From: Candidatus Hermodarchaeota archaeon
GTDB taxonomy: Archaea; Asgardarchaeota; Hermodarchaeia; Hermodarchaeales; Hermodarchaeaceae
Length of the DNA stretch: 15,100 nt
Assembly: GCA_016840065.1 (NCBI GenBank)
Contig: JAEOTB010000076.1
Coordinates: forward strand, 1 to 15,100
Reading direction: 5' to 3'
Below the pieces are notes generated by a model, which saw only the letters and a program-made list of their open reading frames with translations, made no database searches and was not told the DNA's origin. Every line of letters starts with the position of its first letter. Within the stretch, counting starts at the first letter, position 1. The translations under genes and the position numbers were made by a program. This document shows, one piece after another, positions 1,464-6,362 of this stretch.

Positions 1464-4400
1464 TCACCATGGAATGCCAAGGAGTGCACGAGGAAGGGCA
1501 CCTAACGGATGGATCAAGAGTAAGTACAGCACGATGAAGGTAATCAAGGCACCATAGACAATCTTGACCTTGTGCTTACCCCAAAGCCCCTGGTGCACAG
1601 CATTCAGGTGCTCGCAGCTACGCTTGTACCGGGCAAACATCCAAGGAAGCTGGTCCGCAAACTCACCAACAGCCTTGCTCTCAGTAAGGTAAGGCGCAAG
1701 CGACTGATGAACCGGCGCACCATCCTTAACGGTCAAAGGCTCCGGCGTGTTCCAGTTGAACAAGAAGTCAACGATGGGAGCAACACCGCGGATCTTGGCG
1801 GCGTTCTCGTACCAGAGTTCTCTCCAGTGGTAGTCGCTGGTTATCCATTCGATGTTGCCAGTCCTTGCATTTACCCATACGTCTGCGCGTTCCCAGTCAT
1901 CGTGGGGTAGGGGTATGGTCCATTCGAGTTTCCAGAACCAGACGTAGCGGTAGACCCAGTAGCTGTCGGCTTCGAGCCAGGCGTTGATTCCTTCTGCGAG
2001 GTTTTCGTGGGGTTCGAGGTGGTGGCGGATTTTTTCGTCAACGTCTTCCCATTTGCGCCATGTTCGGCGTTTTCTGTCCCAGTATTCGGCTTCGGGGAAG
2101 TGGGCCCAGTGTTTTGTTTTTGGATTATAGTATGGGTTCAACTCACGTCTTGTTGAGTAGAAGTAGAGGCTTGCTGTGTGGATTTTGGGTGGTCGTCCGA
2201 AGTGTTTGGCGAAGAAGTTGAATCGGCGGGTGAAGCTGTGGGTGGGGCGGGTCCAGAGCTCTATGGCCCGTGGGTTGATGAGGTTCCGTAGGGCGATTGG
2301 CTTTTGGCGTCTTCCGGGGGCTTTGATCATGAGGTCGCAGCGGTCGCCGCCTCGTGGCAGGATGGTTATCTCGTGGGGTATGATGGTTTTTCCGAAGGCT
2401 CGTGAGTACTTGCTCTTTCCGCCCATTCGGTCGAGGAGGCGCATCTCGTACTCGTTGGCGGGGTTTTCCTTTGTTCCGCCGCGCCAGTCTGTGCGGTACA
2501 TGCCGTGCTCGTATCGTTGGGACCAGTAGTCTCTGAATAGGTGGGCTCTGGGTGGTTTGTAGGTTACGGGTCCGTCTCGTAGGTCTCGGGCGAAGCTGGT
2601 GCGGACGAGGTCGACGAATCCGAAGCGTTGAGTGATTTCGAATCCGGTGACTTTGATGTCTTTGGGGTCTTTGACCTTGGGGAGGCCTAGTGCCTTGCTT
2701 AGGGTGGTATCCTGGAATGCTCCGAGCAGTTCGTCGTCGAGTTCTTTGTGGAATTTTCCTGGTTCTGCTTGGCGGTGCATTTGGGCTAGTATTCTTCGGA
2801 TACCCCATAGGGTGGAGCCAGGCTTCTTGAAGGCGTAGAGGGCTTCGACCCATTCACCTTTGCCTTTGCCTGTCTGGACATAGTAGTCGGTGACGAGGAG
2901 GCGGGGCTCCCAGGTCTTGGGGTCGATGAATATGTCAATGCGGTGGTTTGTCCAGCCTTCTCTGTAGGGGGATCCAGGAGCTGGCGCTACTTCGCTGGGT
3001 TCGAAGCAGTACCAGAGTCGGTAGACCCAGTATTCGCTGTCGTAGTTGGAGTCGCCGATGAAGACGCTGCCGTAGAAGACCTCTTGGAAGGTGACACCGT
3101 TCCTTAAGCGGGGTATCTCTAGCTCCTCGGCCGTCATGAGACGTGGAATCGACTTGATTTCAAGGAACTCATATCCAGTTCCAATGGGTCCAGGCATAGG
3201 CACGAAGAGTTCGATGCGGCTATTCACTTCGAAGAGCTGGCCCTTGCGTCTCTCCTTTTCGCCAAAGAATTTTAGTGTGAACTTGGGGGGTGTCCTTTTC
3301 AGGTGCTTGGTCTTCTCCACAGCTTCTTGGCCCCGGGTGATGGTTGGTGTGAGGGTTTCGGGATTCACATAATCCTTGGGTTCGTACTCTGGGGCGAACC
3401 TAGGGACATAGCGTGGGAGGTTGGCGCCTTCACTGAAGACGATGCTAAAGTCCTCATACCATTTCTCACCGATTTCCTTTGCCCAGTTAACTTCTGCAGT
3501 TAGGGTCTTGGGGCGGCTTATGACCTTGAAGAAGACAGAGTGGACTGCGATTGGTTCCTCTTTGCCTTCCTGGTAGATTCCGAATTCGATGGGGAAGACA
3601 TAACCGGGGATTATATTACCTTCACGAGCTGCCTTTGTAAATACTGTGAAGAAAGCAGGGGTGGTTAGGTCATCGACTGATGGTGGTTTCTCGCCTTTTT
3701 CGACCTTCTCGGAGGTTGCTCCCTCCAGGGAGCCTATTGTCACACCGCTGTGGTCACCAGACCACATGACGGCGAGCCAGGGTTTTTCTCCTTCCTCAGG
3801 GGATTCTTCTTCTGCTTCAACCATTGCCTCTAGAGATTCAATGGAGGGGGGGAGAGGAGCGCGGGGTGGTCCGAAGGCATCTATTGGTCTGGTGTCTGGG
3901 TCGAGTAATCCTGTGCCTAGGTAGAAGTGCTTCATGGAGACTTCATCCTGTTCCTTGGCAGCTAGTTCTCTTGAGGTACTTGGTGGAAGGAAGTGGGGGA
4001 GTGTGCTTATGGGTCGGATTGTAAGTTTGCCATAGTCCTTGTCGGTGACATTTATCACGGCTAGTTTGACCGGGGTTTCAGCTTCAAAGTACACAGTGGT
4101 TTCGGGTTCAAAGTTTGGAAAGACTCCTATGGCGAACTCGCTTTCAATGGCTTTGCCAATTTCTCCACGGAGTCCCCTGAGCACATCAAGGACTTCTGTT
4201 TTCATCTCCTTTGAGACACCCTTGCTCTGGGCTAGATGGAGTGCCTCTCGTGTGTAGTCAATTGCTCGGAGGAACACTTGAAGAGTCCAGTTATCCATTC
4301 CCACTTCATCTCCAAGAAACTGGACCGTTTCCAGGATATCAGTGATTGCTTGAGTGGGACCGGTTTTATCTGCGTAGAGGGTGTAGAATCCAACGAGTTC

Positions 4401-6362: not shown

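Follow-up and report, generated by a model that had tools for sequence, protein, structure and literature searches.

Asgard archaea are studied for clues to the origin of eukaryotic membrane organisation, and an alpha-solenoid is a typical protein-binding platform. To our knowledge, large cytoplasm-facing membrane scaffolds are rare among prokaryotes. Membrane proteins with a related arrangement have been described, as tail-anchored SNARE-like proteins were reported in Heimdallarchaeota (bioRxiv 10.1101/810531). A second point of reference is provided by the NLPs, in which a cation (Mg2+) pocket lined by the motif GHRHDWE engages the head group of a glycolipid (PMC8311650). The locus described here lies within a window of 15,100 nt, this being the whole stretch of DNA analysed, from a Candidatus Hermodarchaeota archaeon (contig JAEOTB010000076.1), and encodes a protein designated P0001.

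The open reading frame of P0001 is a genuine, conserved gene, for which 19 full-length orthologues were recovered with identities of 50–83% and no internal stops. Orthologues occur in 17 of the 18 other genomes of the same family (f1), with one copy in each. Matches to a profile of the N-terminal half were confined to this family (17 of 301 genomes of the phylum), and no homologs of this half were found among proteins of 413–1330 aa. The full-length protein is restricted to one family of Asgard archaea. The gene and its surroundings are given below, with the flanking signals identified by reading of the sequence.

7420–8262, minus strand: gene for a 280-aa ArsR-type HTH protein (Pfam HTH_5, E 2.4e-11), upstream of P0001
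6791–7417, minus strand: gene for a 208-aa protein that matches no family, upstream of P0001
6439–6450, minus strand: TTTTTATTAATA, AT-rich promoter-like stretch in the upstream region 6370–6450
6370–6374, minus strand: Shine-Dalgarno-like AGGTG, 7 nt 5' of the ATG
1464–6362, minus strand: open reading frame of P0001, 1632 aa plus stop
1411–1449, minus strand: terminator-like hairpin GGAGGAG ... CTCCTCC, then a T-rich run, 15 nt past the stop codon

The AT-rich stretch ahead of the gene is considered a putative promoter, and the hairpin with its T-rich run a putative terminator. The preliminary description had presented this as a stand-alone gene with its own ribosome-binding site and terminator. 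The AGGTG element and the hairpin past the stop codon bear out the latter part, but the gene is less solitary than was proposed, as all the orthologous loci examined have the ArsR-HTH and 208-aa genes ahead of it in the same orientation, with the order HTH gene, 208-aa gene, P0001 gene repeated in eight orthologous loci. An Rfam scan of the whole window, including the 428-nt upstream spacer, identified no RNA families.

The layout of the protein was as follows, with residue numbers being those of P0001.

5958–6362, minus strand: four-helix bundle, residues 1–135
4128–5957, minus strand: alpha-solenoid of helical hairpins (TPR/SNAP-like), residues 136–745
3678–4127, minus strand: conserved short beta element (746–790) and Pro/acid/Ser-rich linker (791–895), residues 746–895, pLDDT 25–64
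3243–3677, minus strand: conserved beta-rich region, residues 896–1040, strands in the AF2 model, pLDDT 50–84
2577–3242, minus strand: degenerate DWER module, residues 1041–1262, YWVYRLW...GWTNHRxD...TDYY, with other residues in place of the intact copy's acidic pair
1569–2576, minus strand: intact FRDYWS + DWER domain, residues 1263–1598, from profile matches and shared motifs
2520–2537, minus strand: FRDYWS motif, residues 1276–1281
2178–2495, minus strand: basic insert, residues ~1290–1395
1728–2042, minus strand: core module, residues 1441–1545
1887–1904, minus strand: HDDWER, residues 1487–1492
1626–1649, minus strand: LPWMFARY, residues 1572–1579
1503–1562, minus strand: single C-terminal transmembrane helix, residues ~1601–1620, Kyte-Doolittle 19-residue maximum 2.45
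1467–1502, minus strand: 12-residue tail after the transmembrane helix

The N-terminal half had been described as some 750 residues of helical, TPR-like sequence, and this is what was recovered. The AF2 model of residues ~1–745 is all-alpha, with 26 helices and a pLDDT of 85, and residues ~350–740 superpose over 240–285 residues on TPR/SNAP-type structures, so that the superhelix of stacked helical hairpins is seen in both the model and its matches, which include designed repeats, LGN and Rap proteins. Short disordered loops interrupt the solenoid at residues ~505–527, 551–560 and 632–638. Pfam TPR profiles gave no match in the segments of P0001.

The acidic, proline-rich insert noted earlier was likewise located, at residues 791–895, which are probably disordered according to the model (pLDDT 25–35); this stretch is composed of 43% Pro, Glu, Asp and Ser and is poorly conserved, with 39% identity to the other genus. 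The C-terminal half of P0001 is beta-rich and was modelled by AF2 with a pLDDT of 50, with residues ~1260–1600 at 25–50. No significant structural match for this half was returned by Foldseek against the PDB, by the ESM Atlas shape search or by BFVD. Since the model is poor, these searches reveal little of the true fold, and the Ig-like label given to the beta-rich part, which extends into residues 896–1040, is for the same reason unconfirmed.

Residues 1263–1598 form the best-conserved part of P0001, with 66–71% identity between genera, and on the evidence of profiles and motifs they belong to an undescribed domain family whose marks are FRDYWS, HxDWER and LPWxxRY, in that order. A profile search with the domain gave matches to polytopic proteins in ~58 representative clusters (E 1e-26 to 1e-11), with FRDYWS present in 24 of the 58 relatives and LPWxxRY in 20. 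The family profile in turn matched the window with an E of 1.6e-39, over a core having D-x-E-R, W, A and D-x-H-x-R, flanked by FRDYWS from residue 1276 and LPWMFARY from residue 1572. All eight residues invariant in the family (D1489, E1491, R1492, W1496, A1499, D1510, H1512 and R1514) are kept. The hydrophobic segments that lie between FRDYWS and the core in polytopic members are absent from P0001, which has a soluble insert at this position (21% K+R over residues 1263–1440). Judged by these motifs, the C-terminal ~340 residues of P0001 represent in soluble form a domain that is elsewhere embedded in polytopic membrane proteins. A total of 137 proteins carry the DWER-family domain, none of them with a Pfam domain, and we know of no polytopic FRDYWS + DWER protein that has been characterised or is covered by Pfam or NCBIfam. 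The soluble form of this domain at the C-terminus was overlooked in the preliminary description.

The protein had been put forward as being of no recognised type, and this agrees with the absence of any match in Pfam and NCBIfam for the whole of P0001 and for six segments of it. Sequence-profile searches of the PDB, for which each half and the domain family served as queries, also returned nothing, save for a match to EgtD that was rejected as chance, being of 20 residues only. The duplicated aromatic modules reported at the C-terminus correspond to the degenerate and the intact copy, whose relationship as duplicates was detected at low significance (BLASTP E 0.004; hhalign E 3e-4, probability 40%, 47 columns).

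The topology of P0001 was judged by Kyte-Doolittle hydropathy, charge and analogy. The sole peak above 1.6 was at residues ~1597–1620, the next best reaching 1.29, and all 19 orthologues had a maximum of 2.4–2.9 at the corresponding C-terminal position, so that each has a hydrophobic helix ~12 residues from the C-terminus. In each of the 19 this helix is preceded by a K/R-H/N-K-V-K motif, and in P0001 its flanks are Lys-rich on the N-side as against one Arg in the tail. The hydropathy scan gave no N-terminal hydrophobic segment or signal peptide in P0001 or any of the 19 orthologues, all having polar N-termini. Among the domain relatives, FRDYWS occurs at residues 4–30 of proteins with Lys-rich N-termini and no signal peptide, the transmembrane segments ahead of the module are mostly even in number, and several proteins end in CxxC...CxxC (Cys4) zinc-ribbon tails with no transmembrane segment between ribbon and domain. 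From the missing signal peptide, the conserved terminal segment with its basic motif, and the way in which the relatives' zinc ribbons and their N-termini without signal peptides share one side of the membrane, we infer by analogy that P0001 probably lies against the cell membrane from within, its bulk cytoplasmic and held by the single terminal helix, as the tail-anchored, cytoplasm-facing arrangement first suggested would have it. Genes for an ATPase of the ArsA/Get3 family (full-length, 317 bits) and for an EMC3/YidC-like insertase are also present in the genome.

With moderate confidence, P0001 is interpreted as a tail-anchored scaffold that faces the cytoplasm, the ligand of its membrane-proximal domain being a cation or the head group of a lipid. 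The protein would be inserted post-translationally via its C-terminal helix, with the preceding ~1600 residues in the cytoplasm and the bundle and solenoid (residues 1–745) acting at the membrane-distal end as a protein-binding platform. The flexible acidic/proline linker and the beta-rich domains would join the solenoid to the membrane-proximal end, where the two DWER-type copies, one degenerate and one intact, are expected to reside. As transmembrane hairpins interrupt the domain in the relatives, the intact-type domain should lie flat on the cytoplasmic membrane surface; in P0001 a strongly basic, aromatic-rich insert stands in place of the hairpins, with the predicted anchor helix directly after the domain. 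The invariant Asp/Glu/Arg/His cluster of the intact domain would bind a cation, the head group of a lipid or glycolipid, or both, comparable to the HxDWE-like pocket of NLPs, and the solenoid would bring soluble partners to this membrane-surface site, giving a membrane-anchored scaffold.

The invariance of the D/E/R...D/H/R cluster across Asgard and bacterial members is also a pattern resembling that of an active site, and the DWER domain could instead be an enzyme, with a membrane lipid or a lipid-linked glycan as its substrate, such as a metal-dependent hydrolase or transferase working on the cytoplasmic leaflet. P0001 would in that case be a membrane-bound enzyme and not purely a scaffold, with the solenoid being regulatory or substrate-recruiting. 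This would suit the polytopic nature of the relatives and several of their gene neighbours, namely GT2 and an amino-acid-kinase-family gene (G024), an LbH transferase and GlmS (G029), GDPD (G056) and, beside one bacterial relative, NTP-transferase, epimerase, SIS, EamA, UbiA and GHMP kinase. However, these contexts vary by lineage and recur only among close relatives, with one different conserved context seen, and no partner gene was found to recur across lineages beside the genes of the relatives. Enzyme-family matches are absent in Pfam, NCBIfam and PDB sequences, P0001-type proteins have Trp-Asn in the NFHTP motif of the family, where Phe-His is near-invariant, and the acidic pair is lost in the second copy. 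An enzymatic role is viewed as unlikely.

Three indications, all of them weak, suggest a possible distant Vps62/NLP-like fold for the P0001 domain. Look-alikes identified with a protein language model were two Vps62 clusters (0.90, 0.87) and an NPP1 cluster (0.86), which serve as a lead only, with 9–10 of 10 named matches of this search falling within one family or clan. Two NLP structures align over ~145–150 residues with the degenerate copy of P0001, in a low-confidence model. The P0001 motif P-H-D-D-W-E-R has only H..DWE in common with GHRHDWE of NLPs, and P0001 has neither a signal peptide nor a conserved Cys pair. Pfam NPP1 (PF05630) gave no match at E <= 10 in the window, the segments of P0001, its own genome or the family loci of five further Asgard genomes, and at the same threshold Pfam Vps62 (PF06101) gave none in the window, P0001 or the family loci of those five genomes. 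The one weak Vps62 match elsewhere in the genome (15.4 bits, below the cut-off) was discarded as spurious, being to an unrelated open reading frame with an in-frame TAG on contig C85. On a more speculative extension, FRDYWS + DWER would constitute a hitherto unrecognised branch of the NLP/Vps62 superfamily in prokaryotes, facing the cytoplasm and reading membrane lipid head groups via a bound cation, and in one Asgard family the domain would have been freed from its polytopic body, duplicated and fused to a new 745-residue solenoid, giving a lineage-specific tether or organising scaffold, possibly for internal membranes or protrusions; we regard this as distinctly unlikely.

An analogy to TRAPPC9/10/11 had also been drawn, by which P0001 would be a eukaryote-like trafficking tether or coat-type scaffold working with a neighbouring longin-Arf-like GTPase. 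It is consistent with the succession of alpha-solenoid and beta-rich domains on a membrane anchor and with the Arf-like GTPase gene (Pfam Arf, E 2e-18), which is found 3 kb upstream of P0001 in all family loci examined and is 70–73% conserved. The solenoid matches, however, are in a range flagged as generic for helical repeats, being of the TPR/SNAP type as for any such repeat, with no TRAPPC9/10/11 chain among the top 50, and an Ig fold was not recovered in the models of P0001. The GTPase gene is on the opposite strand to that of P0001 with three unrelated genes between them, and the functional tie had as its sole basis synteny among closely related genomes, which carries little weight. The absence of solenoid homologs outside the family argues against an inherited eukaryote-like component, and a tether of this kind is judged quite improbable. 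A complex prediction for solenoid residues 1–700 with the Arf-like GTPase scored 0.00, a 'no answer' that counts neither for nor against binding.

Export of P0001 to the cell surface, with a C-terminal anchor and extracellular DWER/PepSY-like modules, is highly improbable. In its favour, PepSY is usually extracytoplasmic and was weakly matched (PF03413) in 8 of 58 relatives (best E 0.004), the VIA matches for model residues 618–766 include small folds of the PepSY-like and NTF2-like kinds, and C-terminal anchors are frequent in archaeal surface proteins. Against it, a signal peptide is present in 0 of 19 orthologues, the N-side flank of the transmembrane helix is Lys-rich, a 745-residue alpha-solenoid free of Cys pairs is typical of cytoplasmic proteins, and in the relatives the Cys4 zinc ribbons are contiguous with the domain and the FRDYWS strand is borne on signal-less, Lys-rich N-termini.

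As a putative cytoplasm-facing scaffold, P0001 is near-universal in one Asgard family and combines a confident solenoid with a strongly conserved, uncharacterised domain predicted to lie at the membrane surface. The DWER-type domain is also present in more than 100 polytopic proteins, which come from Asgard archaea and from certain bacteria, and a function for it would annotate a whole unnamed family, while its ligand or activity would reveal what the giant scaffold contributes at the membrane. As neither eukaryotes nor archaea more widely have a counterpart to the full-length protein, P0001 represents a lineage-specific invention and provides no evidence on eukaryogenesis.

When compared to known systems, P0001 resembles the tail-anchored proteins of eukaryotes and archaea in its lack of a signal peptide, its single transmembrane segment within ~30 residues of the C-terminus and its predicted cytoplasmic bulk, with a Get3/ArsA homolog and a YidC/EMC3-like insertase in the same genome, but it is roughly tenfold larger than is typical and is without a SNARE or other known cytoplasmic domain. 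Its solenoid has stacked helical hairpins like those of gamma-SNAP (2ifu), Sec17, LGN, Ski3, Ctr9 and the TPR region of TRAPPC8. The NLP/NPP1 proteins (PF05630) are small, secreted, disulfide-bonded toxins, whereas the P0001 domain is predicted to be cytoplasmic and has a different His spacing. The polytopic FRDYWS + DWER proteins comprise Asgard forms of ~840–1000 aa (records from Lokiarchaeota, Hodarchaeales and Helarchaeota), forms of ~350–650 aa, including P0047 from the same genus as P0001, and bacterial forms of ~500 aa (records from Eisenbacteria and Latescibacterota). They share with P0001 the FRDYWS strand, the YWVxR...HxDWERxExWVDAxTG...SDYHYRELWY core, LPWxxRY and all eight invariants; they lack a solenoid and have 2–15 transmembrane segments, with hairpins placed between FRDYWS and the core. 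In P0001 this place is taken by a soluble basic insert, and the protein also has a second, degenerate copy, a further ~1260 residues on the N-terminal side and only one transmembrane segment, which is terminal.

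The giant gene of the window was read from the sequence as a single open reading frame:

1464-6362, minus strand: giant gene, an ORF of 4,899 nt encoding P0001 (1,632 residues)

An AGGTG lies 7 nt ahead of the ATG, downstream of an AT-rich stretch, and the stop is followed by a GGAGGAG/CTCCTCC hairpin and a T-rich run, which bears out the separate ribosome binding site and terminator described for the gene in the preliminary description. When 5.8 billion proteins were searched by word index, 18 other full-length homologs (1,617-1,631 aa, 50-83% identity) and three fragments were identified, all labeled as hypothetical and belonging to Promethearchaeota or Thorarchaeota MAGs. 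Searches of whole genomes located the protein, always as a single copy, in 17 of the 18 other genomes of its own family, from two genera. Complete gene copies are free of internal stops, and mean column identity across the 19-sequence alignment is 72%. The giant gene is real. Its 3′ third (window 1500-3500) has a higher GC content (0.54-0.56 vs. 0.47-0.49 upstream), with AT skew strongly negative (to -0.39) and GC skew positive.

Hydropathy analysis (Kyte-Doolittle, 19-residue window, threshold 1.6) identified one segment of P0001 above the threshold, at residues ~1597-1620 (peak 2.45, the next-highest value in the protein being 1.29). All 19 orthologs possess a polar N-terminus, a hydropathy maximum of 2.4-2.9 at the equivalent site, 10-15 residues from the end, a conserved K/R-H/N-K-V-K motif just N-terminal to it and a short C-terminal tail bearing one Arg. 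The absence of a signal peptide and the lone C-terminal TM segment reported earlier thus hold throughout, and P0001, as judged from sequence, formally qualifies as tail-anchored; the distribution of charge around the segment favors a cytoplasmic location for its bulk. Also encoded in the genome are an EMC3/YidC-like insertase and a full-length ATPase of the ArsA/Get3 family (317 bits); the presence of the latter is permissive rather than diagnostic, since the ArsA family occurs in all 14 control genomes.

The C-terminal half (residues 745-1632) was modeled poorly (AF2, pLDDT 50.0). Residues ~791-895 (pLDDT 25-35) are probably disordered and are the least conserved stretch of P0001 (39% identity between genera); with 43% P+E+D+S, they correspond to the acidic/Pro insert that had been noticed. 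Residues ~896-1262 are beta-rich in the model (pLDDT 50-86). However, the label "Ig-like" is unconfirmed, as no structure library gave a significant match to this model: Foldseek against the PDB (best E 0.04), the Atlas (TM ≤ 0.31) and BFVD (nothing). Residues ~1260-1600 were modeled below pLDDT 50, yet are the most conserved part of P0001 (66-71% identity between genera).

It was within this conserved part, the DWER domain (residues 1263-1598), that relatives were identified. A profile built from residues 433-1632 was run against 1.84 billion representative proteins and matched ~58 clusters besides the orthologs (E 1e-26 to 5e-4), in every case via a single module of ~90 residues (P0001 ~1445-1540). 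None of these relatives (188-984 aa) has a Pfam family, and most are multi-pass membrane proteins. The exact FRDYWS motif (P0001 1276-1281) is also present in 24 of the 58, often at the extreme N-terminus, and LPWxxRY (P0001 1572-1579) occurs near the C-terminus of 20. Between FRDYWS and the module such relatives carry 1-6 hydrophobic segments, mostly an even number (simple caller); the corresponding insert of P0001 lacks any such segment, and Lys+Arg make up 21% of it. Given these shared elements and intervening segments, residues 1263-1598 are a soluble version of a domain split by membrane hairpins in its relatives. P0001 retains all eight residues invariant in a 61-sequence alignment (D1489, E1491, R1492, W1496, A1499, D1510, H1512, and R1514), while the near-invariant Phe-His of NFHTP is Trp-Asn. 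A second search, with this alignment as query, gave 137 proteins, all lacking precomputed Pfam domains, and no NCBIfam family matched. By record name, members occur in Lokiarchaeota, Hodarchaeales, Helarchaeota, Eisenbacteria, and Latescibacterota; within the phylum, 30 of 301 genomes, spread over six families, carry the domain, each in a single copy.

The modules had also been described as duplicated. Residues ~1108-1161 of P0001 do align to ~1464-1512 (BLASTP E 0.004), and hhalign of the two family profiles gave E 3e-4 over 47 columns at a probability of 40%; the upstream copy has its Asp/Glu pair replaced (GW..HR for DW..ER). An internal repeat with one degenerate copy is plausible but weakly supported.

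A different genome from the same genus as the window encodes a polytopic paralog:

L039 (G003:C188), 1450-3087, plus strand: P0047, DWER-domain protein of 545 aa

It possesses FRDYWS at residue 16, about six TM segments, a core reading H-P-D-I-E-R (Ile in place of Trp) and a C-terminal LPWNKWRYPRG. No copy of the giant protein was found in the 80%-complete assembly encoding P0047. Because P0047 exists in the same genus, the giant protein is a paralog of the polytopic form and not simply its replacement. Relatives begin MPKSD..KAKVRVFRDYWS or similarly, with about 100 soluble residues and no signal peptide before the first TM segment, and several from Asgard archaea carry C-terminal CxxC...CxxC zinc-ribbon tails past the module with no intervening TM segment. 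Both features argue for a cytoplasmic DWER domain, in agreement with the tail-anchor reading of P0001.

P0001 is most likely a cytoplasm-facing, tail-anchored scaffold. The adjacent anchor and the basic insert would press the intact DWER domain onto the inner leaflet, where a cation, a lipid head group or both are probably bound by the domain's invariant cluster of acidic residues, His, and Arg. The main alternative is that the domain may instead catalyze a reaction at the inner leaflet. In the scaffold reading, a large surface for binding other proteins would be offered by the solenoid of 745 residues and the flexible linker, at distances of up to tens of nanometers from the membrane. The analysis establishes the layout of P0001, its conservation and its place in the domain family; its orientation, ligand and partners are inferences.

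The eight orthologous loci that were examined all have one gene order around the giant gene: DEAD/MZB helicase, thioredoxin-like protein, metallo-beta-lactamase-fold protein, Arf-like GTPase (opposite strand), xylose-isomerase-like TIM-barrel, ArsR-HTH, a ~210-aa protein without a family match, and the giant gene. In the window, these include:

6791-8262, minus strand: ArsR-type HTH protein (280 aa) and 208-aa protein, upstream of the giant gene on the same strand in 8/8 loci
9397-10260, minus strand: Arf/Roc/Ras-family small GTPase with an N-terminal extension of ~110 residues

The first two ORFs are separated by 2 nt and look like an operon; the N-terminal half of the HTH protein is coiled-coil, rich in Pro and very basic, and the 208-aa protein has no family in Pfam or NCBIfam. 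A spacer of 428 nt (6363-6790; 180-270 nt in two orthologous loci) follows, with hairpins and a T-tract at about 6445-6537. No Rfam family was matched anywhere in the window. On the 3′ side of the giant gene (112-1218, minus strand) is a gene for a 368-aa protein that is recognizable only in its C-terminal 2x[4Fe-4S] ferredoxin domain (~285-340); in orthologous loci, its place is taken by 3HCDH and LysE genes. A LysE transporter gene, just downstream of the giant gene in two of these loci, also adjoins the polytopic relative from another family, which faintly hints that the two positions are equivalent.

The contexts of other DWER-domain relatives vary among the loci examined: GT2 with an amino-acid-kinase-family gene; GlmS with LbH; GDPD; UbiA, NTP-transferase, and epimerase; and, in one bacterial clade, a conserved DUF6754 block. 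Bacterial members of ~500 aa (L013, L014, L040, and L041) share a block in which they are divergent from the DUF6754 gene, past which lie four small unannotated genes and a GDE-type glycosidase; GHL10 and BcrAD/BadFG genes come after the DWER member.

The observations of the preliminary description were thus confirmed in part, and its interpretation is partly supported: the tail-anchored layout stands, while the proposed tie to eukaryote-like trafficking has no demonstrated link. Across the family the GTPase shows 70-73% identity, exceeding the giant protein in conservation, and its position is fixed (3 kb upstream, reported as opposite-strand), but this synteny says little about function since the genomes of all eight loci belong to one family. 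P0001 is a family-restricted giant protein carrying an unnamed domain family. Among known systems, a distant NLP/Vps62-like fold is a lead, with about an even chance of being correct, rather than an assignment of membership.
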